Assembly (NCBI GenBank): GCA_001788955.1
Contig: MFXT01000019.1
Location: forward strand, 6,331-70,330
Length of the DNA stretch: 64,000 nucleotides
Origin: Candidatus Peribacteria bacterium RIFCSPHIGHO2_02_FULL_49_16
Lineage (GTDB): Bacteria; Patescibacteriota; Gracilibacteria; Peribacterales; Peribacteraceae
Direction of reading: 5' to 3'
The notes beneath the pieces are model-generated. The model was not told where the DNA came from and made no database searches. It worked only from the letters and a program-made list of their open reading frames with translations. Each line of letters opens with the position of its first letter. The first letter of the stretch is position 1. Of this stretch, positions 4,843 to 62,916 are shown piece by piece. Made by a program: the position numbers and the translations under genes.

Positions 4843-5471
4843 GGAGAACGGAGAGAAGCAATAGCCTCTGCACGATCGGGTGCGGAAAAAATGAAACTTC
4901 CGGAGACAAGATTATTCGCCCCCGCCTCAATGCACTTTTTTGCCGTTCGATCATCAATACCGCCATCCATTTGTATCATCAGATTCGGATAATGTTCCCG
5001 AATCGCACGCACTTTTTCGAGCACGTTCACCATAAACTCCTGACCGCCGAAGCCCGGATGCACAGACATCATCAATACAAGATCAACATCTTCGATTGTT
5101 TTGGCGATTGCATCGATCGGCGTCTCCGGATTCATGGCAATACCGGCAGTCGCTCCGCCATCGCGGATAGCAGCCACCAGCGCCGACCGTTCTTCCGTAT
5201 CCGTCACTTCGGCATGGAACGTGATATTTTTGACTTTCAGAGACAAAAAATCCTCAATGCGATCTTCCGGATTTTCCACCATCAGGTGAATATCGAGTGG
5301 AAGTTTTGTTTTGAGATGACGAAGAACCGGCGCACCGAAACTTAAATTCGGCACGAAATGTCCGTCCATCACGTCCACTTGCAGCCAATCAGCATACGAT
5401 TCGATCGTATCGACCTCGTCCTGGAGACGGGCTAAGTTGCAGGAGAGAATGGAGGGAGTGATCAGTGTCAT
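4839..5471 (-). CDS. rpe: Ribulose-phosphate 3-epimerase
   Basis: 210 aa with PSILSCNL, DVMDGHFVPNLSFG and MSVHPGFGGQ blocks. Confidence 0.95.
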   Translation of the reverse strand: MTLITPSILSCNLARLQDEVDTIESYADWLQVDVMDGHFVPNLSFGAPVLRHLKTKLPLDIHLMVENPEDRIEDFLSLKVKNITFHAEVTDTEERSALVAAIRDGGATAGIAMNPETPIDAIAKTIEDVDLVLMMSVHPGFGGQEFMVNVLEKVRAIREHYPNLMIQMDGGIDDRTAKKCIEAGANNLVSGSFIFSAPDRAEAIASLRSP

Positions 5472-5941
5472 ATGAATGGCTCAATTTCTCTTACCCGTCG
5501 TTCGTGCCGCCCACCTTCGAACTCCGTCTCCAAAAATATATCCACCATCTTCTTGGCTAATTTTTCCTCGACATACCTTCCTCCAAGACTCATGACATTC
5601 GCGTCATTGTGTGCGCGTGCAAGGCGGGCAATTTCCTCATTCCAACACACTGCCGCACGGATGCCTTTCATTTTATTGCCTACCATGGCTTCTCCGTTGC
5701 CGCTGCCGCCAACAATGATTCCGAACACCCCCTCCCCTCTATCCCCTCCCTTATGGAGGGGAGAAAAGGAAAGCACTTCTTTACATCCTTTGCGGATAAT
5801 CGGCGGGTAATCATCGTCTTGCTGAACATGTGGAGAAACATCTGTCACATCAATTTTTTTTGATGAAAGATACGCTTTGATTTTTTCCTTCAGCGCAAAA
5901 CCTGCATGATCGGCGGCAAGAATGACGCGTTCCACTTTCAT
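5468..5941 (-). CDS. rpiB: Ribose-5-phosphate isomerase B carrying an in-frame mini-element insertion
   Basis: RpiB/LacAB pattern: ILAADHAGFALKE, GIIVGGSGNGEAM, NDANVMSLGGR. The start is set at ATG 5941 (MKVERV) because the longer ORF to 5995 would overlap tpiA. The segment SPLHKGGDRGEGV is extra. Confidence 0.9.
   Translation of the reverse strand: MKVERVILAADHAGFALKEKIKAYLSSKKIDVTDVSPHVQQDDDYPPIIRKGCKEVLSFSPLHKGGDRGEGVFGIIVGGSGNGEAMVGNKMKGIRAAVCWNEEIARLARAHNDANVMSLGGRYVEEKLAKKMVDIFLETEFEGGRHERRVREIEPFI
5728..5764 (-). repeat. G/C-rich hairpin and G-tract mini-element, copy A (inside rpiB, sense orientation)
   Basis: The sense-strand sequence is TCTCCCCTCCATAAGGGAGGGGATAGAGGGGAGGGGG. Close matches occur at 29979-30016 and 62503-62539. 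Confidence 0.85.
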
Positions 5942-9373: not shown

Positions 9374-12300
9374 CTATTCAATAGTACTCCCCGTGCCGCT
9401 CTGCACATTTACGGTCGACTCACTGCTTGCTCTCGACTGCTCTACACCTGCACCACTTTCCGTTTCCTGCTCGCTGCTTTCCTCGTCGGTCGTAGCCCCA
9501 GAGCTCACTTCACTCATGACAACATGGTCTTCTTCATCTGGAATGATGATCGTGCCACTGCCGGTCTGCACCGAACCAGAGCCTGTGGGCGCCTCCTCAT
9601 TCTCTCTTTCAAGGAGAGGGGTACTGGAGACGCTACTTTCAAAACTGCTGCTTTCCGAACTCACAGAGCTCGGCTCATGCTCGGGGAGTTCCCAACCTTC
9701 ACTCGTTCTACCGTACACGGTTCGCGCTTCCAATGTGCCAAGCGCGATCCACGAGAAGGTGACAGACTCGCTTGCAGGATATGCAAGATGAATCGTAAAG
9801 CCGGTCAACGTCGCTTTCGAGACACCGAAGAGAATAGGAACATCCGCCGATGCCGTCACAATGGGCGGCGCGAGGAATCGTCCGCTGCCAAAAAGCACGG
9901 TCACCGCCGTTGCTGTCTTTGGGATTATGGCATATCCTCCCTGCTCTTCATTGAGTACAAGCGCGCCGCTGACAGTCAGAATTCCGGCTACCTCTACGTC
10001 GCCAAGAAATCGGGCAAGACCATGGATCATGATATCTCCGAGAACCTGCATGGCATCATGAACGAAGAGATTACCAACAAAGATACTGCCGCTGCCACCC
10101 AGCACAAGCGAACCGCTGCTCATATGAATATCACCATCCACGACCAGAAGCCCTTCGATCTGTGATCCGCTTCCGGCAACAATCTTGCCTGCTTTCAACG
10201 TGGTAGTGACCTCTGCACCACCGTCGATTCGCAACATTCCCGGGATAAAGAGATCGGCCACGTTCAATTCTCCCTCAATAAAGAGATCACCGCCGATGCG
10301 CGCATCATCGCTCACTATCAGCTTCGCGCCGACAGTCATCTCCTCCACATTGATCGCTTCCGCGTACAACGTATCGTCAAACGTCACCTCACCGCCGATG
10401 CGCACTTTCCCCGCAAAGTTTGCATTGCCAACAACCGCAATCCCCTCATGGACAAAAACCGTCCCTGATCCCGAACCGTCGGCTTCAAACTCTCCAATCT
10501 GCTCCTGCAAAATTGCGATATCGCGCACAGCTTTTACCATAGTCATCTCCATCGTCCCCATACTCTCTTGAATCTGCTCTGTCTGCGTCACCAACACCTC
10601 CCCACCGCTTCCGGTCATATTTTCACTCTGCAAGAGAGCGGAGTGAGGAATCAGCATGCTCTGAAAATCTATTTCGTTCATCTTCTGTTCGATTTTCCGA
10701 TCAATATACTGATCAATCTGCAGCGCGCCTGAACCCGACCCATTCAGGAAGAGATCATTTTCATTGAGAACCATGCCGCTCCCCGTATTGAAATGTATGG
10801 GATTTCCCACCGGCGAACGGTCAATGAATGCCATGATCGTACTGACGCCGCTGCCTGAAAATGGTTCCAGTGCCCGCGCCACCACCGGCCCGTGATCGGC
10901 ACGCATGGCGATGCCGGAACGCTCTGATGCGGTGAGCAGATCTCCTGCGGCGATTGATCCGTTTTCCGCAGTCACTTTTACGGGAACGCGTCCCGCGAGT
11001 CCGAGGAGAACTTGCCGCGTATCCGCAGGTTGTACAGGACTACCTGAAAGAACGATACCCGGCTTTGCCGAAATAATGCCGAGCATATTCGGGTCATACG
11101 GAGTGGAACTGCGCCGTACAAGAGCGGGAGAAGCCGGATCGAGGCTCACGAGATCACCCGCTTGAATAGTATCATCGTGCGTGTAGTAGATTTCCGCAAG
11201 GTCTGCACCTGCAACGACGTTCAGTTGGATGACGGACAGGCGGGGCGCCTTTGATCCACCTATGGTATTTTTGGCTGCCGATGCGCTATCAAACTGACGC
11301 CCAAATAGTTCAATGTAGTCTCCAATTGCCAAATCGAGCACGTCGGTTGTAGTGACTAAGAATGAATCAGCAGAGAGCTCTGCCCCTATAGAACTATAAA
11401 CAACTTCCACATTGTTCTTAAAAAGACTTACAGCTATATCATCGCCTGCCCCCGCAGTGACACCAAATATGCCTGTCACCAAATATTTCCCCGCCTTCTT
11501 GATGGTGATGCGGCCGGAGCCGGTGGTCGTGACATCGGCAATGCCGCCGACATCGAATTGTTCGGTGTCAAGAGATATCTTTGTATTTATATTATGCGGC
11601 ATGCTCTGCGCAGCATCCCGCGTCATCTTCGCCATGTGGAGCGTTCCTGACCCTGTAACGAGTTCTTCCCATCCGGTGCTTGCGCCATCGGCCTGCGTCT
11701 TGATGTAGACCTTTCCGCCGTTGTGATCGAAGTACATGGAACCCAGCGCACTTGCAACATTTCCTACAGGAGAGCCGGAACCGGCTTGAAGCAGCACGTC
11801 ATTCGTCTCATCACCCATATGGATCGTCCCGCCGCTCAAGTACAGATCGCGGAAACGTTTTCCGTCGGAACCAATGTCAACGGCATTGGTGCGTGACGGC
11901 GTAATGTGATAACCAAATGTGGAGCCGGAGCTGATATTCAGCGTGGAGCCGGAGATAGCGCCTCTCGTCGTGATACTTCCGACAACGAGAAGTGATCCGG
12001 AAATATTGGCATTGCCCGATACATCAAGCGATCCTCCGCTGATGTGGATGAGGGCGATGTCATTATCTGGAGCGGTTGATTTGATAATAATTCTTCCGCC
12101 ACTGACGGTGAGGAGATTTTGATCGAGGGTTCCACTGACTCTCTTGATGGTCAAAGCTCCGGTCATGGTGTCGCCGCCTGTGCGAACGTAGTAGTCGTTG
12201 ATCTTGTCACCACCATCATTGCTGTCTGTACTCCACGAAAGATTTCCTGCACTGTCGGTCTTGAGAACTTTTCCCGTGGCGGTGCCGTCGGTGAAGGGGA

Positions 12301-13051
12301 AGGTGTAGGTGACGCCGTTGATCTTTACGGTGGAGTTCAGTTCCGCTCCTCCGTCGATGACGAGTTTTCCCGAGGCGGCGAGATTCCCTGTGACCTGGAA
12401 GTCATCGGACCATTCGAGAGTGTCTTCCGCATTGATGAACGTCAGCGTTTCGTTGGTGGTGTCACTGCCGAAGGTCAGAATCGTGTCGGCAGCGGTCTGG
12501 TCGGCGTTGAGCGTGAGATTGCCTCTGGAGGTGATACTTCCGACGATGAGGAGTGTTCCGGAAATATTGGCGTTTCCAGACACATCAAGCGATCCTCCGC
12601 TGATGTGGATAAGGGCGATGTCGTCGTTGGGGGCAGTTGATTTGATAATAATTCTTCCACCACTGACCGTGAGGAGATTTTGATCGAGGGTTCCACTGAC
12701 GCGTTTGATGGTCAAGGCTCCGGTCATGGTGTCGCCTGCGGTATGCACGTAGTAATTTACAAAACCATCTGCACCTCCTCCCACTGACGCGCTCCATACT
12801 GCATCGCCATCGGATACTGTGAGCACCTGCCCGTCCGATCCGAGAGAAAGAGTGCGAAGAACTCCCGTGGATGTCCCAAGCAAAAGCTCGCCCTTTGAAT
12901 ACGATGTGAGATATGTTCCCCCCCTTCCCACAGTCAGAACATCCTTCGTTCCTCCATTGATTGGAATAAGCCCGCCCTGATCGTCATTCGTATGCTCGTG
13001 GCGTTCCAATCCGGAACTAGCCTCCACCGTATTACCCCCCCCCTCCACCAC
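9374..13051 (-). CDS. Very large repetitive surface protein, tail-fibre-like / beta-helical
   Basis: 1225-aa ORF with a GTG start. It has two near-identical 71-aa modules beginning DTMTGALTIK, a motif common in phage tail-fibre-like proteins. It also has long Gly/Ser/Val/Asp-rich beta-strand repeats and a Ser/Glu-rich C-terminal tail. No N-terminal signal peptide is present in this ORF as annotated. Confidence 0.85.
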   Translation of the reverse strand: MVEGGGNTVEASSGLERHEHTNDDQGGLIPINGGTKDVLTVGRGGTYLTSYSKGELLLGTSTGVLRTLSLGSDGQVLTVSDGDAVWSASVGGGADGFVNYYVHTAGDTMTGALTIKRVSGTLDQNLLTVSGGRIIIKSTAPNDDIALIHISGGSLDVSGNANISGTLLIVGSITSRGNLTLNADQTAADTILTFGSDTTNETLTFINAEDTLEWSDDFQVTGNLAASGKLVIDGGAELNSTVKINGVTYTFPFTDGTATGKVLKTDSAGNLSWSTDSNDGGDKINDYYVRTGGDTMTGALTIKRVSGTLDQNLLTVSGGRIIIKSTAPDNDIALIHISGGSLDVSGNANISGSLLVVGSITTRGAISGSTLNISSGSTFGYHITPSRTNAVDIGSDGKRFRDLYLSGGTIHMGDETNDVLLQAGSGSPVGNVASALGSMYFDHNGGKVYIKTQADGASTGWEELVTGSGTLHMAKMTRDAAQSMPHNINTKISLDTEQFDVGGIADVTTTGSGRITIKKAGKYLVTGIFGVTAGAGDDIAVSLFKNNVEVVYSSIGAELSADSFLVTTTDVLDLAIGDYIELFGRQFDSASAAKNTIGGSKAPRLSVIQLNVVAGADLAEIYYTHDDTIQAGDLVSLDPASPALVRRSSTPYDPNMLGIISAKPGIVLSGSPVQPADTRQVLLGLAGRVPVKVTAENGSIAAGDLLTASERSGIAMRADHGPVVARALEPFSGSGVSTIMAFIDRSPVGNPIHFNTGSGMVLNENDLFLNGSGSGALQIDQYIDRKIEQKMNEIDFQSMLIPHSALLQSENMTGSGGEVLVTQTEQIQESMGTMEMTMVKAVRDIAILQEQIGEFEADGSGSGTVFVHEGIAVVGNANFAGKVRIGGEVTFDDTLYAEAINVEEMTVGAKLIVSDDARIGGDLFIEGELNVADLFIPGMLRIDGGAEVTTTLKAGKIVAGSGSQIEGLLVVDGDIHMSSGSLVLGGSGSIFVGNLFVHDAMQVLGDIMIHGLARFLGDVEVAGILTVSGALVLNEEQGGYAIIPKTATAVTVLFGSGRFLAPPIVTASADVPILFGVSKATLTGFTIHLAYPASESVTFSWIALGTLEARTVYGRTSEGWELPEHEPSSVSSESSSFESSVSSTPLLERENEEAPTGSGSVQTGSGTIIIPDEEDHVVMSEVSSGATTDEESSEQETESGAGVEQSRASSESTVNVQSGTGSTIE
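11960..12172 (-). repeat. Intragenic repeat, copy 2 of the 213-nt DTMTG module
   Basis: Nearly identical to 12521-12733 at both DNA and protein level. The period is 561 nt (187 aa). Confidence 0.9.
12521..12733 (-). repeat. Intragenic repeat, copy 1 of the 213-nt DTMTG module
   Basis: See copy 2. The shadow ORFs on the plus strand at 11919-12122 and 12309-12683 end in almost the same peptide, which confirms the DNA identity. Confidence 0.9.
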
Positions 13052-28332: not shown

Positions 28333-31323
28333 ATGATACCGCACATTCCAGAGAGAAAGTCATCAAAAATGGCTTTTGCGGAAAGTTACGAACAATTAAA
28401 TATCGATCAAAAAGAAGCAGTCGATACGATTGAGGGTCCGGTGATGGTCATCGCGGGGCCGGGGACGGGAAAGACGCAAGTTGTTGCCTTGCGTGTTGCA
28501 AATATCCTCAAAAAAACACACATGCGTCCGAGTAATATTCTTTGTCTCACCTTTTCCACGAGCGGTGCAACTGCCATGCGCGATCGGCTGAAGAAGTATA
28601 TCGGTTCGGATGCGTATGGAGTAACAGTGAACACCATTCATGGATTTTGCAATGATCTCATTGCGCAGCATTCATTGCTCTTTGAAGAATGGTCTGCATT
28701 GGAACATGTAAGTGACATCGAGCGATATCGGATCATCAATACCATTATCAATACAATGCTTCCTGATATTGCACTCGTGAATCGCAAAAATCCGTATCGA
28801 AAGAGCGGAAACATTTTGCATCGCATCAGTCAGATCAAACGTGAAGGCATTGAACTGGAGAAGTTGCGACAGATTGCGGATTTCTACGAACAAGAGCTGT
28901 CACAAAAAAGTAAGGAAAGGACGAAGGCGCATGCGAGAAATATTCGCCAGGCACGCAAGTTCAAAGAGTTTGTCACGGTCTTTCAAAAATATCAGGAAGA
29001 GCTGGAGCGATCACAGCGCTATGACTACGAGGATATGATCCTCTATGTCATTCGTGCATTGGAGGAAGAAGAATGGCTGCTTGCCGGTCTTCAGGAGCGC
29101 TATCACTACATTCTCATTGACGAATTTCAGGATACGAATGGCGCGCAAAATCGCATTGTGGAATTACTTACCACATATCCTCACCTTGATCACGAACCCA
29201 ATCTCTGTGTTGTCGGTGATGATGATCAGGCGATTTATCGCTTTCAGGGGGCTAACCTGCAAAATATTCTCGCATTCCATGCACGTTTTCCCACGTCGAA
29301 AAAAGTCGTATTGAACATGAGTTACCGCTGTCTCCAGCCGATCCTCGATGCTGCCGGCTCGCTTATTGAGCACAATACGGAGCGTCTCGTTGGAAAAATC
29401 CCCGGTCTTCAAAAAAACCTCATTTCCGCTTCACCCGCCCCCTGCCCCCTTCCTCCTACAACCACCTTCTCCCCCTCCGATGCTCTTGAACCGTGGCTCA
29501 TTGCCGAATTGGTGCAAGAGCGAATACACATGGGAGTGTCACCATCCGAAATAGCGATTCTTACTCAAACGAATGCGGAACTTTTGCCGATCTATGAAGT
29601 GCTTCGTGTGCAAAATATTCCCGTTGATATGCGCGGAAAGCTTGATCTTCTTGCACAACCGCAGATCAAGCAGCTGATCTGCATCTTGAGAGCAATTGCA
29701 AAACCGAATGAGTGCGGGCTTCTTGCCGCAGCGCTTGCCTGTGAATGTTTTGATTGTCATCCGGCGGATCTCGGCAAACTTTTTGCGCATAAAAAAGAGA
29801 AGAATATTTCATTAATGAATGTCCTTCTCTCTCTTGAAGGAGGGGAGTGGAAATTGCAAATCAATCAATATGATGCGATGATTTCTGCTCGCGATATTCT
29901 TTTGGATATTCATTATAAACTGTCGTCTCGCACGATCGTCGACACTCTGGAACATGTCCTGAAAGAATGTTCCTTAATCTTCCCCTCCCTTGAGGGAGGG
30001 GATCGAGGGGAGGGGGATACAATTGATCCTTTAACTTTTGCCCCCCTTCAGTCGTTCTTTAACCGCATCAAGTATCGTGCCTATGAGCAGCCAACCTATG
30101 ACATCAACACACTTATCGAAGATCTCGAGTACTACGAAAATCCGGAGTACGGCGATGTCCGCCTCACCTATGAAATTCCGCATCTGATCGAAGATGGCGT
30201 ACAACTCATCACCGCACACCAAAGCAAGGGATTGGAGTTTCATACCGTGATCCTTACGAATATGCGTGAAGGACAGTGGGATGGTCGTCGCCATCCGGAA
30301 TCTTTCTCCATTCCTGAAGATTTGCTCTTTGGATGGGAAAAGGATCAGAAGACATATGAAAAGAATCAGGACGAGCGACGTGTTGCTTACGTTGCCATGA
30401 CGCGTGCAAAAGAGGAACTTCTCTTTGTCGTCAGTAAAACGCAGACGCGCGGCGAAAAGAAGAAAGACGTGTCTCCATCGCGATTTATTGCAGAGGCGAA
30501 TGTGATAAGCGAAGAAGAGCGTACGCCAAAAAATGCGGAACAGTCGTCAACGTTATTGCATACTCCGGAGAGACATATTGATGAAGAGTTTGCCGCGTTC
30601 TTACGTGCCCGGCTGAAAAAATTTCATTTGTCCGTTACGGCGCTTAACCACTTCCTCGACGATCCGCAGAAATTTTTGGAGATTGATCTTCTGCAAATGC
30701 CGAAGAGTAAGACACCAAGCCTTGTATACGGAAATGCCGTGCACAACGCTTTGCAAGCGTGGGGGATGCAAAAATGTAAAATGCACAATGGAGAATTCAC
30801 CATGAATGAATTTCTGGATACATTCAGAAAATATCTCAATGAACGTGAAGTCTTAACAAAAAAAGATCGAGAGAATTTGATCCATCATGGAGAAGAGAAT
30901 CTGCCGCGGTATTACGAAGAAGTTCTTGCAGTTTCACATCCGCACATCCACAGCGTTGAGCGGGGGATTTCCACTCATCTTCCAATGTCCATTCCCATCA
31001 AAGGCCTCATCGACCGTATTGATCTTATTCATCCGTCATCAAGTGATGCTGTGATCATCGACTATAAAACCGGCATCCCAAAAACCGAAAAACAAATTCG
31101 TGACGGTGACTACTTCCGTCAACTCGTTTTCTATGCACTCCTTATCGAACATGCTGATACTGCTCTGCAGCCGAATGTCTTTATTCTCGATTTTATCGGA
31201 GAAGGGGATTATGCCCCCATTCAGCGAAAATTTACAGTTTCCGAAGCGGAAAAAGAAGAAGTGCGCACGATGATTCGGGCAGTATGGGATAAAGTACAGA
31301 ATCTGGATTTTACGCCAGTGTGA
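28333..31323 (+). CDS. UvrD/PcrA-family ATP-dependent DNA helicase with a C-terminal PD-(D/E)XK nuclease domain
   Basis: Motifs AGPGTGKT, ILIDEFQDTNGAQ, VVGDDDQAIYRFQGA, TAHQSKGLEFHTV, VAYVAMTRAKEEL. The C-terminus has GLIDRIDLI...IIDYKTG...QLVFYALL (RecB/Cas4-type nuclease). The start could instead be ATG 28369. Confidence 0.93.
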   Translation: MIPHIPERKSSKMAFAESYEQLNIDQKEAVDTIEGPVMVIAGPGTGKTQVVALRVANILKKTHMRPSNILCLTFSTSGATAMRDRLKKYIGSDAYGVTVNTIHGFCNDLIAQHSLLFEEWSALEHVSDIERYRIINTIINTMLPDIALVNRKNPYRKSGNILHRISQIKREGIELEKLRQIADFYEQELSQKSKERTKAHARNIRQARKFKEFVTVFQKYQEELERSQRYDYEDMILYVIRALEEEEWLLAGLQERYHYILIDEFQDTNGAQNRIVELLTTYPHLDHEPNLCVVGDDDQAIYRFQGANLQNILAFHARFPTSKKVVLNMSYRCLQPILDAAGSLIEHNTERLVGKIPGLQKNLISASPAPCPLPPTTTFSPSDALEPWLIAELVQERIHMGVSPSEIAILTQTNAELLPIYEVLRVQNIPVDMRGKLDLLAQPQIKQLICILRAIAKPNECGLLAAALACECFDCHPADLGKLFAHKKEKNISLMNVLLSLEGGEWKLQINQYDAMISARDILLDIHYKLSSRTIVDTLEHVLKECSLIFPSLEGGDRGEGDTIDPLTFAPLQSFFNRIKYRAYEQPTYDINTLIEDLEYYENPEYGDVRLTYEIPHLIEDGVQLITAHQSKGLEFHTVILTNMREGQWDGRRHPESFSIPEDLLFGWEKDQKTYEKNQDERRVAYVAMTRAKEELLFVVSKTQTRGEKKKDVSPSRFIAEANVISEEERTPKNAEQSSTLLHTPERHIDEEFAAFLRARLKKFHLSVTALNHFLDDPQKFLEIDLLQMPKSKTPSLVYGNAVHNALQAWGMQKCKMHNGEFTMNEFLDTFRKYLNEREVLTKKDRENLIHHGEENLPRYYEEVLAVSHPHIHSVERGISTHLPMSIPIKGLIDRIDLIHPSSSDAVIIDYKTGIPKTEKQIRDGDYFRQLVFYALLIEHADTALQPNVFILDFIGEGDYAPIQRKFTVSEAEKEEVRTMIRAVWDKVQNLDFTPV
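29825..29847 (+). repeat. Possible decayed or partial copy of the mini-element (TTCTCTCTCTTGAAGGAGGGGAG)
   Basis: About 18 of 23 positions match the 5' part of copy B. It is read in the same frame (SLEGGEW versus SLEGGDRGEG). The C-rich arm is degraded and the third arm is absent. Confidence 0.4.
29979..30016 (+). repeat. G/C-rich hairpin and G-tract mini-element, copy B (inside the helicase gene, sense orientation)
   Basis: Sequence CTTCCCCTCCCTTGAGGGAGGGGATCGAGGGGAGGGGG. It contains a perfect 8-bp hairpin CCCCTCCC-TTGA-GGGAGGGG followed by a second G-rich arm. Confidence 0.85.
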
Positions 31324-38243: not shown

Positions 38244-38266
38244 GAAGTAATATTATTACAACGATG

Positions 38267-38296
38267 ATGTATCAATTAATTGATTAATTGATGTAT
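38267..38296. repeat. 30-bp AT-rich palindrome, copy 1 (ATGTATCAATTAATTGATTAATTGATGTAT)
   Basis: 28 of 30 positions match copy 2. It overlaps the 5' end of the TrpR-like ORF. Confidence 0.9.
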
Positions 38297-38827
38297 ACTG
38301 ATTATCATCGTAACAATATGGGTAAATTAGACTTTCGAAAGCTATCAAAGAACGATCTTGTCGATCTTGAGGAGGAACTCTGGAAAACGCTAAAGGGAAT
38401 GCGAGCATTAAAAAAGGACCCCTCTCTCCTTTTTCGAGATCTTCTCACGATGAGTGAAGTCATCATGCTCGCACGACGTATCCAAATAGCAAAACTCCTT
38501 ATGTGCGGTCACTCACAACAGGATATATGCTCGAAGCTGTGCGTCGGACTCTCCACCGTTCAATCCATTGATCGATGGCTTCGAGAAAAATTTGAAGATT
38601 ATCGTGATGTCCTCCCCGATCTCTATAGAAAAACATGCGCTCTACAGAGACAAAAGGACCGTAAATGTGCACCTATTGATCCCTACTCTTTCCGATGGCT
38701 TCGACGAAAATACCCCCTCCATTTTCTCCTTTTTACTATTGTCCTTAACGACCTTCATTTTGATTTCCATGAAACTCACCCCACAAATAGGAAATATACA
38801 CCGAAAAAATTGTCTCCTAAACACTAG
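38288..38827 (+). CDS. TrpR / YerC-YecD-like DNA-binding protein with a C-terminal extension
   Basis: The segment LLTMSEVIMLARRIQIAKLLMCGHSQQDICSKLCVGLSTVQSIDRWL matches the TrpR-related YerC/YecD pattern. The true start is uncertain (TTG 38288, ATG 38291 or ATG 38318). Confidence 0.7.
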   Translation: MMYTDYHRNNMGKLDFRKLSKNDLVDLEEELWKTLKGMRALKKDPSLLFRDLLTMSEVIMLARRIQIAKLLMCGHSQQDICSKLCVGLSTVQSIDRWLREKFEDYRDVLPDLYRKTCALQRQKDRKCAPIDPYSFRWLRRKYPLHFLLFTIVLNDLHFDFHETHPTNRKYTPKKLSPKH

Positions 38828-38837
38828 TAAAAATCTC

Positions 38838-38867
38838 ATACATCAATTAATTGATTAATTGATGTAT
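38838..38867. repeat. 30-bp perfect palindrome, copy 2 (ATACATCAATTAA-TTGA-TTAATTGATGTAT)
   Basis: 13-bp arms with a 4-nt spacer. It begins 11 nt after the stop of the TrpR-like ORF. Confidence 0.9.
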
Positions 38868-38932: not shown

Positions 38933-39017
38933 GGGTCGGTACCGAAGTGGTCAAACGGGCCTGACTGTAAATCAGGTGGCTTCGCCTTCGGGGGTTCGAG
39001 TCCCTCCCGGCCCACCA
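38933..39017 (+). tRNA. tRNA-Tyr (anticodon GTA), long variable arm, CCA encoded
   Basis: Manual fold. Acceptor stem is GGGTCGG/CCGGCCC, anticodon stem CCTGA/TCAGG with loop CTGTAAA. A class II variable arm and a TTCGAGT T-loop are present. Confidence 0.93.
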
Positions 39018-60196: not shown

Positions 60197-61564
60197 ATGG
60201 AAAATACAAGAATTACATATGGCAAAGAATTCCGGTTATCGCATCGACTGGAAGTCGTGCGATGTGACAAGTACACGTTGATCTATCTTCCGCAGGAAAA
60301 AGTATGGCGAAAACAGGATGCCGATGACCAGAGAAAGTTTTTGATGGATGAACAGGAAAAACAGGAATTTCTGGATATTGCAAAAGAACCCGGAGTCAAA
60401 GTGTATTACCTGCCGGGGAAAACAGTAACCGAAGAGGAGTTCTTTGGCGAAAATGGTGACAATGGAAAGGAAAAGAAGAAAATGTTCCCGCGATTTTTTA
60501 TCGGATTGGATGGATTTGTAAACTGCTCCACGCATTTTCAACCTCATGATGGAAAAAAAGGACCGCGTGCAAATTTTAACCATCATCATGGCATTCGGGA
60601 GAGTACAAAAAGCACATGCAAGCAGGTTCATGCCGCGCTTGTACCCGGTGGCCCCATCGATAAACACTTCAGGACGAATGATGACCAGTTCATTGTCAAC
60701 CTTGCTCTGAATCATCTTGACGAGGATGGCGAAGCGAGCATTTGGGAATTCGTGTATCGCGAGAAGATTCATGAACTCGACGTGTCCGGCGAGCGTCGTG
60801 CCTATCGCAGTCGTGTTATTCAACTTCTTCTCGATGACATCGGCGATATTGATGAAGAAGGAGGAGTATCTCCGCTTCCTCTCATTGAGACAGAGGAGAT
60901 TAAAGCACTCTTTTGTCATGTGCAGGAAGTAAAAAGTACATCCATAGCATGTACATATACGGAACGATTGAATAATATTTTTTACAACATCAATCGTGCG
61001 ATTGAGAAGACTCTGCGCGGTGAAGAACGCGATCGCGAAAATGTAGAAGAGAGTTTTCGTTTTTTGGGACGAGGCAAAGGTTTTACTGTTGTTACAGATA
61101 CGCAAAAGGAGGCACGTAACGCTTTACGAGATATGGGTGTGGAAGCAGCCGTATTACACAAAGGACAACTGGAAAATGGAAGTCACGTTTTTACCATTCA
61201 ACGGTTTGATATGGGTAGCCCTTTCCCTTTGGAAAAAATCATCGACATGCTGAATCGTATGGAACGTGTTCCAAAACACATGCGTCACAAACCCCCGCAA
61301 GAACTCATTACATACATTCAAAAACCGGACGCCGTTCTTGTTCCAGAAAAAGAAGAGGATCAATGGGGAGGTGACAACAAAGTGAGCGGCTCACCTCGTG
61401 AGAACGGAACCTGGATGGATCCAAACGCCATACGAGAAAGTATTACTTGTTATCTTGCGCAATTGGAATCTGAACAAAAAAAAGAAGAAATTTCCAATCA
61501 AAACACGGTGGAGGATGTAGAAAGCGGCAAAGCGCTTCTTGATGATGACACAGGGGATGAATAG
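60197..61564 (+). CDS. Hypothetical protein (455 aa, orphan)
   Basis: A long ORF 15 nt downstream of prfA on the same strand. It is acidic and I recognise no motif. The opposite-strand 289-aa ORF looks like low-complexity shadow. Confidence 0.55.
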   Translation: MENTRITYGKEFRLSHRLEVVRCDKYTLIYLPQEKVWRKQDADDQRKFLMDEQEKQEFLDIAKEPGVKVYYLPGKTVTEEEFFGENGDNGKEKKKMFPRFFIGLDGFVNCSTHFQPHDGKKGPRANFNHHHGIRESTKSTCKQVHAALVPGGPIDKHFRTNDDQFIVNLALNHLDEDGEASIWEFVYREKIHELDVSGERRAYRSRVIQLLLDDIGDIDEEGGVSPLPLIETEEIKALFCHVQEVKSTSIACTYTERLNNIFYNINRAIEKTLRGEERDRENVEESFRFLGRGKGFTVVTDTQKEARNALRDMGVEAAVLHKGQLENGSHVFTIQRFDMGSPFPLEKIIDMLNRMERVPKHMRHKPPQELITYIQKPDAVLVPEKEEDQWGGDNKVSGSPRENGTWMDPNAIRESITCYLAQLESEQKKEEISNQNTVEDVESGKALLDDDTGDE

Positions 61565-62916
61565 CGCAAATCTTTCATCATGTCTTTTCGTTTCTGAATC
61601 ATCTCCTCTTTACCAATGTCTCTGCGAAATCGCACGGGGCCTTGCACTTGTTCACAGAGCTTTTGTGCAATAGCTTCAGCTTGGGCGATCGAATCACCGA
61701 TACCGACGATGCCGGCTGTACGGGAGGAACCGAGTATGAGGTTGCCATTGAGGTCTTCAGAAATGTCGCCGTAGAATAGGTTGTAGCGATCAGGAGCTGA
61801 ATGAGAGAATGGAAATTCTACAATATCCCCCTTCTGATCTTTAGAAACAGGATAACTTTCCGGAACGATATATTTGCATACGGTGGCTTTGCGAGAAAAG
61901 TGCACCAGATCTTCGGTGAGTTCTCCGGTGACAATGCCCAAACAGATGGCCGCAAAATCTGATGTGAGAAGAGGGAGAATATTAAGTGCTTCAGGATCTC
62001 CGAACCGTGCGTTGTATTCAATGAGCCGGATGCCGTCGCGAACGGCGATAAATCCTCCATAAAGAATACCTTTGTAGGGTATGCCGAATTCTCGAAGAAG
62101 CGCATGTGCAACCAACTGATTGATTTCCTGCGCTCTTTTCAAATCGTTCTCTGTTAAAAACGGCAAGGAGTGATTCGTATCGCTGTATGTCCCCATGCCA
62201 CCGGTATTCGGTCCCGTGTCATTTTCGTATGCGCGTTTGTGATCCTGTACGACCGGCATATGAACGACGTCTGGTCCGCTGACAAACGAGAGAAGGCTGA
62301 ATTCCACACCGATGAGTTTTTCTTCAAGCACAACACGCCCGCATTCCTCGATGCATTCCAGAGCATACGATACGCCATGATCAATCGTTTCCAAATGTTC
62401 ACCGGAGAGTTTTACTCCCTTTCCTCCTTTTAAGGCGTCATACTTGACCACGTATTCTCCGTGCAGTTCATTCTCAATATACGAGCGGATTTCTTGTTCA
62501 AGCCCCCTCCCCCTACCCCCTCCCTCAAGGGAGGGGAGAACACGAAACTTCGGCGATGCATCAATGTCATGCTTCTTGAGCAGATTCCGGGTGAAACCTT
62601 TGCTGGACTCGATTTTTGCCAATTCTTTTTTTGGGGCAACGGAAGCGATGCCGATTGTTTCCAATGCATCCGCAAGACCGCCGCCGATTGCATCATCGGG
62701 AGCGATGAAAGCAAAATCCGGCTGTGTTTTTTTTGCAATGGCGCAGACCTGTTCAAAATTCATGATATTCATGACATGCTGCTCGCGTGCAAGCGCACGA
62801 ATGCCGGGATTTGCCGTAGGACAGAGTGAAATGATTTCCATGTTCTGCGGACTTCTGGCAAACGCATCCGCAATCGCATGTCCCCGCGCCGAGGAAGAAA
62901 CTAAAAGAACGATCAT
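61498..62916 (-). CDS. purD: Phosphoribosylamine--glycine ligase carrying an in-frame mini-element insertion
   Basis: ATP-grasp PurD blocks: VVKYDALKGGKGVKLS, GPNTGGMGTYS, IEYNARFGDPE. The segment PSLEGGGRGRG is extra. A tail of about 40 aa lies beyond the usual C-terminus. The gene overlaps purF by 4 nt. Confidence 0.93.
   Translation of the reverse strand: MIVLLVSSSARGHAIADAFARSPQNMEIISLCPTANPGIRALAREQHVMNIMNFEQVCAIAKKTQPDFAFIAPDDAIGGGLADALETIGIASVAPKKELAKIESSKGFTRNLLKKHDIDASPKFRVLPSLEGGGRGRGLEQEIRSYIENELHGEYVVKYDALKGGKGVKLSGEHLETIDHGVSYALECIEECGRVVLEEKLIGVEFSLLSFVSGPDVVHMPVVQDHKRAYENDTGPNTGGMGTYSDTNHSLPFLTENDLKRAQEINQLVAHALLREFGIPYKGILYGGFIAVRDGIRLIEYNARFGDPEALNILPLLTSDFAAICLGIVTGELTEDLVHFSRKATVCKYIVPESYPVSKDQKGDIVEFPFSHSAPDRYNLFYGDISEDLNGNLILGSSRTAGIVGIGDSIAQAEAIAQKLCEQVQGPVRFRRDIGKEEMIQKRKDMMKDLRYSSPVSSSRSALPLSTSSTVF
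62503..62539 (-). repeat. G/C-rich hairpin and G-tract mini-element, copy C (inside purD, sense orientation)
   Basis: Sense-strand sequence TCTCCCCTCCCTTGAGGGAGGGGGTAGGGGGAGGGGG. It has the same hairpin CCCCTCCC-TTGA-GGGAGGGG as copy B. Confidence 0.85.

Follow-up and report, generated by a model that had tools for sequence, protein, structure and literature searches.

BoxC elements, also described as PIT (potential intrastrand triplex) or TMECO sequences, are short repeats found in Escherichia coli and other Proteobacteria (Hoyne et al. 2000, 2002; Holder et al. 2015, PMC4666352). The published TMECO pattern, CCCTCNCCC N3-6 GGGNGAGGG N3 GGGNGAGGG, has 3610 occurrences in 262 proteobacterial genomes; the repeats show no promoter or terminator activity and are tied to local genomic instability (PMC4666352). 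Nuclear magnetic resonance (NMR) analysis of E. coli TMECO oligonucleotides favoured a purine-motif triplex over a G-quadruplex (G4) in vitro, and purine-motif triplexes were reported not to form in RNA (PMC4666352). Repeats of Methanomicrobiaceae that combine a G-quadruplex sequence with a C-tract exist in vitro as an equilibrium of hairpin, antiparallel triplex and G4 (Chashchina et al. 2021, PMC8044849). Here we analysed a 64,000-nucleotide stretch (the window) from a genome of Candidatus Peribacteria (Peregrinibacteria), a member of the candidate phyla radiation (CPR) found in Rifle-type groundwater data sets. The window is about 94% coding, and a 38-nt element of this general kind, termed copy B, lies in frame within its gene for a UvrD/PcrA-type helicase; two further copies, A and C, lie in rpiB and purD.

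Rickettsia palindromic elements (RPEs), reported by Ogata et al. in 2000, are said to be selfish palindromic repeats that reside in frame in protein-coding genes. They are 100-150 bp long, richer in A/T and specific to Rickettsia, and are not known to have a mirror third arm or to resemble the present element in sequence. A review of miniature inverted-repeat transposable elements also mentions RPEs (PMC10969869).

With a probability of roughly 70%, copy B is a solitary member of the BoxC/PIT/TMECO class that was dispersed as DNA and is tolerated within the helicase gene, its nucleic-acid structure being constrained and the element being a passenger to the protein. A preliminary description of the window had placed the 38-mer CTTCCCCTCCCTTGAGGGAGGGGATCGAGGGGAGGGGG at 29979-30016 of the plus strand, and a pattern search of the window recovered it there letter for letter. 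It is laid out as T-CCCCTCCC / TTGA / GGGAGGGG-A / TCG / A-GGGGAGGG, that is, a pyrimidine arm, a purine arm and then a mirror-image purine arm. The features of the locus are as follows.

28333-31323, plus strand: host gene, encoding a 996-aa UvrD/PcrA-type helicase with a C-terminal PD-(D/E)XK nuclease domain (list of open reading frames (ORFs), Pfam and PDB)
29979-30016, plus strand: element copy B (38 nt), exact match, 0 expected by chance
29980-30021, plus strand: 14 codons (TTC...ACA; FPSLEGGDRGEGDT) in place of the two codons TCT GTG of the ortholog P0002 (codon comparison with L119 and protein alignment)
29981-29989, plus strand: pyrimidine arm TCCCCTCCC, read from the sequence, pairing with 29994-30002 in the RNA-fold centroid (-19.1 kcal/mol)
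29990-29993, plus strand: loop 1, TTGA, shared with copy C and E. coli TMECO no. 2 (Table 1 of PMC4666352)
29994-30002, plus strand: purine arm 1, GGGAGGGGA, the Watson-Crick partner of the pyrimidine arm (sequence and RNA fold)
30003-30005, plus strand: loop 2, TCG, read from the sequence
30006-30016, plus strand: purine arm 2, AGGGGAGGG (+GG), an exact mirror of arm 1 that gives nine canonical Y·R*R triads

The hairpin pattern matched the window twice, against 0.00 matches expected from 100 shuffles, and GGGAGGGG occurred nine times against 0.61 expected. A chance origin of copy B is excluded. The perfect 8-bp hairpin described earlier, CCCCTCCC/TTGA/GGGAGGGG, is present, and its stem is actually 9 bp long because the flanking T at 29981 pairs with A at 30002. 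The four G-tracts attributed to the coding strand (GGG, GGGG, GGGG and GGGGG) were also found. Searches with the covariance models of Rfam 15, at the gathering score, gave no family at the copy B site, the only matches in the window being three tRNAs; identity with a known RNA family was rejected on this result.

ViennaRNA, which models hairpins and G4 only, gave an RNA hairpin of about -19 kcal/mol for copy B, and hairpins with the C arm fell between -19 and -22 kcal/mol. The canonical G-quadruplex motif (G3+ N1-7)x4 is contained in GGGAGGGGATCGAGGGGAGGGGG, and the G4 predicted for the G-part alone (-12.6 kcal/mol) is weaker than the C-arm hairpin in copies A and B. A G4 as the dominant fold was rejected on this prediction and on the literature NMR data, which favoured the triplex for TMECO (PMC4666352). 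With its 9-nt stem, its loops of 4 and 3 nt and the absence of mismatches, copy B falls within the ITxF definition of a class II (Y·R*R) intrastrand triplex motif (Holder 2015, PMC4666352). That definition asks for a C-rich block followed directly by two G-rich ones, a stem length of 6-15 nt, loops of 1-6 nt and no more than one mismatch. The third block of copy B is an exact mirror, with the antiparallel symmetry of G*G:C and A*A:T triads. Read from this architecture and from covariation in the family, the triplex is a potential fold of copy B. The earlier emphasis was on an mRNA hairpin and G-quadruplex, but the conserved feature of the class is the mirror-symmetric third arm of a DNA purine-motif triplex architecture (PMC4666352).

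The element had been taken for a mini-element private to this genome. A scan of one genome per species with the pattern CCCCTCC N4-6 GGAGGGG N3-6 GGGAGGGG returned at least 117 loci in very diverse phyla; among the loci listed were Prevotellaceae, Alpha-, Beta- and Gammaproteobacteria, Nitrospirae, Chloroflexi, Planctomycetes, Clostridia, Peribacteria, Gracilibacteria and others. In metagenomes, a scan for the AT-spacer subfamily added at least 117 further loci. Since the motif occurs at 117 or more loci across many phyla, it is not private to the host genome, and the CCCCTCCC variant proved widespread in both scans. Carriage by phages was rejected, as only 11 viral contigs match the general pattern.

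In the family consensus a pyrimidine arm is followed by a 3-6-nt loop, the purine arm that complements it, a spacer of 2-5 nt and a second purine arm. Most copies elsewhere are intergenic, many with TAA or TGA in the spacer. Covariation was assessed in 185 non-redundant copies at the ninth triad, made up of the base that precedes the C arm, the base that follows arm 2 and the base that precedes arm 3. The three positions covary as C/G/G or T/A/A (44 and 7 copies, respectively, in the unbiased set), and T/A/A was seen in 62 of 81 copies in which the scan pattern had imposed y=A. A mirror model, by which the base before arm 3 equals the base after arm 2, fits 75 of 80 copies (y=A) and a direct-repeat model 6 of 80, ruling out the third arm as an alternative hairpin or direct repeat.

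Strict TMECO sequences lie within 150 nt of 31 of the 242 CCCCTCCC-type copies, 29 of these 31 being inverted, mostly at a distance of 8-11 nt. Overall, the strict pattern CCCTCNCCC N3-6 GGGNGAGGG N3 GGGNGAGGG matches in 41 of 255 fetched loci, and it also matches the in-gene copies of the helicase orthologs P0008 and P0006. Because the CCCCTCCC type and strict TMECO are physically linked as inverted pairs, copy B was filed in the BoxC/PIT/TMECO class, of which it is, judged from its sequence, a variant. Copy B itself is solitary, the pattern search of the window showing no strict TMECO partner.

The host helicase matches UvrD-helicase (1.5e-64), UvrD_C and PDDEXK_1 in Pfam, and its best PDB match is PcrA (1pjr, 4e-62). 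Copy B is translated in frame and in the sense direction as F550-PSLEGGDRGEGD-562, a peptide of 12-13 Gly, Glu, Arg and Asp residues with no stop codon. The helicase was aligned with 120 Peribacteria orthologs, named Candidatus Peribacteria or Peribacteraceae. The closest non-identical ortholog, P0002 (71% identity), reads ...KECGLL-SV-IDPLTFAPLQSFF where the window reads ...KECSLI-FPSLEGGDRGEGDT-IDPLTFAPLQSFF, and in the DNA 42 nt stand for 6 nt, a net difference of +36 nt. Among the orthologs this loop is hypervariable in length and sequence, with mostly unrelated sequence at the site. The ortholog alignment thus agrees with the earlier statement that the element lies in a poorly conserved part of the helicase, and together with the DNA comparison it supports a dispersed repeat copy inserted in coding sequence.

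An AlphaFold model built from 60 orthologs reached a mean predicted local distance difference test (pLDDT) score of 87.9 and a predicted template modelling score of 0.83. The sole internal segment with pLDDT below 50 comprises residues 552-562, the element peptide. It is modelled as a coil that follows helix 535-545 and precedes helix 566-585, in a part of the protein aligning with the PcrA 2B domain. Copy B is, in this model, an insertion in a tolerant, disordered loop. Identical helicase sequences were found in independent assemblies and samples, and copies A and B show no variation among close strains. A possible degenerate fourth copy 150 nt upstream (29826-29852, LLSLEGGEWK) was rejected; LE(G/R)(G/S)EW is kept in P0002-P0006 and P0113, and since it is conserved in orthologs it is native helicase sequence and not a decayed copy.

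The two other copies of the window lie in minus-strand genes.

5728-5764, minus strand: copy A, in the RpiB ORF 5468-5941, TCCCCTCC/ATAAG/GGAGGGGA/TAG/AGGGGAGGGGG, a 10-aa insert before the strand FGIIVGG
62500-62541, minus strand: copy C, in the PurD ORF 61498-62916, a 42-nt block identical in the sister lineage L253

Copy A is read in the sense direction of rpiB as SPLHKGGDRGEGV and corresponds to a 10-residue gap in the solved RpiB structures 1o1x and 3he8 on alignment; copy C is read in the sense direction of purD as LPSLEGGGRGRGL, a 10-residue insert relative to the solved PurD structure 2yrw. All three copies lie inside ORFs with Pfam-supported domains, and none is intergenic, as TMECO in the strict sense is. 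The coding sequences of the three unrelated proteins agree at about 85% of positions over roughly 40 nt, the complementary hairpin arms among them.

Evidence on the level at which the element is constrained comes from orthologous in-gene copies. Copy C and its counterpart in the sister lineage P0122/L253 (GCA_002772605.1) are identical at 42 of 42 nt. The PurD proteins are 76.7% identical, the genes are 71.6% identical in nucleotides outside the element block, and only 46.7% of the codons for the same amino acid are identical outside copy C. The block is the longest identical run in purD (42 nt; the next longest is 21), with P ~5e-5 under a synonymous-only model and 2e-6 under a per-nucleotide model, and it sits in a loop that is hypervariable in other PurD orthologs. 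Given 42/42 identity against flanks of about 72%, the constraint acts on the nucleic acid and not on the peptide. At a site near residue 919 of the helicase, P0008 and P0003 are likewise identical at 44 of 45 nt, against 86.8% gene-wide (P ~0.013). Orthologous in-gene copies are thus almost invariant in nucleotides, synonymous sites included. One signal runs contrary to this: the single mismatch in 12,503 nt between the window and the same-strain assembly L255 falls inside copy C (chance 0.003). It lies at window position 62518 and changes arm 2 from GGGAGGGG to GGGAAGGG (Gly to Arg); the cause is a mutational hotspot at this place or else an error in sequencing the G-run. The sister-like helicase P0002 has no copy B; if P0002 and P0122 come from one genome, B would be younger than C or have been lost there.

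Independent elements recur at several places in the helicase orthologs. In the same loop as copy B, P0037 carries TCCCCTCCCCC/GAT/GGGGGAGGGGA/T/GGGGGTGGGGG in another frame, giving the peptide SPPPMGEGMGVGE, and P0005 carries a C-C-G-G composite. The helicases of P0008, P0003 and P0006 each have one canonical TMECO element near residue 890-920. Near residue 363 of these helicases, which are 82-87% identical, P0006 (L240) and P0003 carry an antisense element and P0008, 87% identical to P0003, a sense element. The P0008 form is a textbook TMECO, CCCTCTCCC CGC GGGAGAGGG TTA GGGAGAGGG, read in frame as ATT CCCTCTCCC CGC GGGAGAGGG TTA GGGAGAGGG GCG GAC (L239:5096-5128), and the P0003 form (L256), also in frame, reads GTC CCTCACCC TGA CCCTCTCCC GCGG AGAGAGGGA ATT. 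Since the elements occupy opposite strands, the site looks like an in-place inversion of about 45 nt of coding sequence or a re-insertion. Comparison of these sequences indicates recurrent gain, loss and inversion of elements in helicase orthologs. The window helicase has at this position (29433-29480, plus strand) a C-rich stretch, CACCCGCCCCCTGCCCCCTTCCTCC...TTCTCCCCCTCC, encoding SPAPCPLPPTTTFSPS, which may be a decayed antisense copy that lacks its G arm.

Outside the helicase, sense copies were found in the middle of ORFs for a GT2 glycosyltransferase, a Wzy_C-like membrane protein, a DUF4922-SpoIID protein and MnmE, and antisense copies in those for an AAA_11/AAA_12 helicase and an RluA-like protein. 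Among the in-gene copies of relatives, those of L192 and L204 are read in other frames and those of L077 and L080 lie antisense. A census at the protein level, with an 84-aa query of concatenated open sense frames, yielded 42 word-sharing candidates, none of which scored. Two of the host proteins carry larger inserts. In Lewinella cohaerens (L110:1211-1244, NZ_KB903544.1) the MnmE (TrmE) GTPase has an in-frame insert of about 190 aa with a DUF559 endonuclease-like domain, and a CCCCTCC-type triplex element stands at the upstream junction of the insert. In L077, a metagenome-assembled genome of Bacteroidaceae (JAFTUK010000019.1), the AAA_11/AAA_12 (Upf1-like) helicase has an insert of about 74 aa inside AAA_12, which starts with the antisense element copy SPSPSPSTREGS and contains a second G/P-rich stretch, GPGEGPPFRFPFEEGE.

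The preliminary description had also held that the three window copies share one orientation relative to transcription and one frame. Copies A, B and C are indeed all sense whatever their chromosome strand, for which the chance probability is 0.25, and over the first G arm (GGA GGG G..) all three are read in one frame. The shared frame covers only part of each copy, because the C arm of copy A is shifted by 1 nt and the spacer of copy C is 1 nt shorter. Since other frames and antisense copies occur in relatives, neither holds as a general rule; "sense, same frame" describes the window only and is not established for the family. Among the DNA-verified independent in-gene copies, 10 are sense and 3 antisense (two-sided binomial, 0.09). 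An explanation by replication strand was rejected, as the G-rich strand of A and B is on the leading-type strand and that of C on the other, with no consistent pattern.

If copy B is a dispersed member of the BoxC/PIT/TMECO class, the element would have come, or been regenerated, as DNA by the family's own dispersal process, and in-gene copies would survive only where their length is a multiple of three, no stop codon is brought in and the site is a tolerant surface loop. Such retention inside genes would be set against the roughly 6% of non-coding DNA in the host genome. The constrained unit would be the hairpin and mirror arm of the G-rich strand, here the non-template strand, and not the peptide, and by analogy with RPEs the host protein would treat the element as a passenger. 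In sense copies the G-rich strand is the non-template strand, and a folded structure would therefore stand outside the path of RNA polymerase; this placement could account for the mild excess of sense copies.

Several observations weigh against this proposal. No mobilising gene was found in the 64-kb window, and the class has been described as always intergenic in E. coli, where Holder et al. could not detect the triplex in vivo (PMC4666352). The strict published TMECO consensus does not describe copy B and has 0 matches in the window. A target-site duplication is not definable, the nearest ortholog free of copy B being only 71% identical. Nucleotide conservation is documented for copy C and in relatives but not for copy B, and no diverged ortholog carrying copy B was found among the helicase orthologs. 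Finally, perfect conservation exceeds what a pure passenger would predict, and a local function could be involved.

Such a function is the core of the first alternative, in which the element is a selected cis-acting structure (hairpin, triplex or G4, in the non-template DNA or in the mRNA) that modulates expression of the host gene, for example by pausing RNA polymerase or ribosomes between folding units or by stabilising the mRNA; the sense orientation of the copies would then be explained. We consider this unlikely. Such a role would suit the near absence of synonymous change in orthologous copies, the sense orientation of the three window copies within a 10:3 excess overall, the stability of the RNA hairpin (about -19 kcal/mol) and the position of copy B between two helices in the 2B-like region. 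The sense excess, however, is not significant (p = 0.09), and the closest ortholog has no copy B, with unrelated loop sequence in most orthologs. Antisense in-gene copies and copies in other frames exist, site 363 holds the element in both orientations in orthologs that are 87% identical, and the family is mostly intergenic. In E. coli, PIT elements also had no effect on RNA polymerase besides lacking promoter and terminator activity, and the purine-motif triplex is reported not to form in RNA (PMC4666352).

Somewhat less probable again is a REP/REPIN-like repeat mobilised on single-stranded DNA by a Y1 (RAYT/IS200-type) transposase, with the in-gene copies as accidental landings. Like REPINs, the element is a hairpin-based dispersed repeat found in inverted pairs, and GTAG, CTAG or TTAG occurs in the second loop of many copies, copy C included. 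In a Peribacteraceae relative a Y1_Tnp-Ham1 fusion gene lies two genes from the helicase, and in L157/L229 a distant Y1_Tnp homolog lies 1.8 kb from an element. The fusion gene (L241:9104-10240, minus strand, GCA_016294905.1) is downstream of the helicase and encodes a 378-aa protein that joins an IS200/RAYT-type Y1_Tnp domain to a Ham1p-like nucleoside triphosphate pyrophosphatase; other relatives have Ham1 alone at this position. The association suggested by L241 is nevertheless improbable: a tblastn search with this single Y1_Tnp query found no homolog in the 64-kb window, and Y1_Tnp stands at only one distinct locus of about 240, no more than by chance. REPs carry GTAG at the palindrome's 5' end, where the element does not have it, and the REP/RAYT model assigns no role to a third, mirror arm. 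In E. coli, no association of BoxC/TMECO with mobile elements was found (PMC4666352).

Selection at the peptide level, by which a Gly-rich flexible linker (…EGGDRGEGD…) would have been chosen in three proteins with the DNA similarity as a by-product, is very improbable. The peptide is in frame, stop-free and hydrophilic and lies in a loop, as such a linker should. Three unrelated proteins nevertheless share ~85% of their nucleotides over ~40 nt, hairpin complementarity included, and synonymous positions are conserved; relatives read the motif in other frames or on the other strand and thus make unrelated peptides, the motif is mostly intergenic elsewhere, and the peptide is predicted to be disordered. 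A chance G-rich low-complexity sequence, local slippage or an assembly artefact can practically be dismissed, even though G-runs are prone to slippage and sequencing error and the only mismatch between two assemblies falls in copy C, given that shuffles predict zero matches, that three unrelated genes each hold a structured copy, that the helicase is identical across independent assemblies and samples, and that public genomes contain hundreds of related copies.

A broader idea, which we regard as speculative and improbable, is that BoxC/PIT-type repeats in CPR genomes are actively maintained structural DNA cassettes that colonise protein loops, stay invariant in nucleotides amid a freely evolving loop and flip in place. 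They might then drive loop-length variation or act as intragenic pause or recombination sites, with the folding G-rich strand preferring the non-template position.

Other features of the window were recorded. The GC skew changes from negative to positive at about 16-20 kb and gene orientation from minus to plus at about 19.6 kb, a switch that is consistent with a replication origin. A palindromic, A/T-rich 31-mer, GATGTATCAATTAATTGATTAATTGATGTAT, occurs twice, at 38249-38296 and 38820-38867, on either side of a 179-aa ORF (38288-38827) just upstream of tRNA-Tyr (38933-39017), and scores as both a direct and an inverted repeat. A 234-nt direct repeat at 11960-12193 and 12521-12754 (87% identity, 561-nt spacing) lies in a 1225-aa ORF (9374-13051, minus strand) and probably reflects the duplication of a domain within the protein.

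The kind of element is already known: work on BoxC/PIT/TMECO repeats goes back to the 1990s and has treated them as intergenic DNA. What is new is the CCCCTCCC variant with its very wide distribution, which extends the class beyond Proteobacteria to CPR bacteria and many other phyla, together with in-frame residence in housekeeping proteins, the flip of orientation at one site and direct evidence of constraint at the nucleotide level. In-gene copies are not described in PMC4666352, PMC8044849 or PMC4736985, a limited search that is not proof of absence. In-frame copies provide an internal yardstick, in synonymous sites and a hypervariable loop, that intergenic copies lack. They show that the element adds insertions to protein loops in a streamlined genome and that one site can hold it in either orientation in close orthologs. 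They also yield odd Gly/Pro-rich inserts that can mislead annotation and alignment.

Among known systems, REP/REPIN sequences (Bertels and Rainey 2011, PMC3116915) resemble the element as short G/C-rich hairpin repeats that form inverted doublets and are extragenic in most genomes. They differ in having no third mirror arm; the element, in turn, has no 5' GTAG head, and no RAYT was found in the window. The Methanomicrobiaceae repeats share with it four G-runs, a complementary C-rich tract and a dispersed distribution, but their C tract is placed 3' of the G-runs, the mirror arrangement, and all archaeal copies are intergenic. With RPEs it has in common that a dispersed palindromic repeat lies in ORFs of unrelated housekeeping genes, in frame and stop-free, encoding surface-loop peptides in a small, gene-dense genome. 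Unlike RPEs, it is only about 36-42 nt long, short of the RPE length, and its family occurs throughout the bacteria, chiefly between genes. The likeness to BoxC/PIT/TMECO lies in the order of the blocks, in which an 8-9-nt pyrimidine arm and a purine arm are separated by a loop of 3-6 nt and a mirror purine arm follows after a spacer of about 3 nt; in G/C-rich arms with a single A/T interruption each and stems more conserved than loops; and in the dispersed multi-copy occurrence of the family, whose copies elsewhere form inverted pairs of two types, as for types A and B in E. coli (PMC4666352). Copy B differs from these elements in its arms, (T)CCCCTCCC / GGGAGGGG(A) in place of CCCTCNCCC / GGGNGAGGG, in its CPR host, and in standing alone and in frame inside coding sequence where the E. 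coli copies are intergenic.

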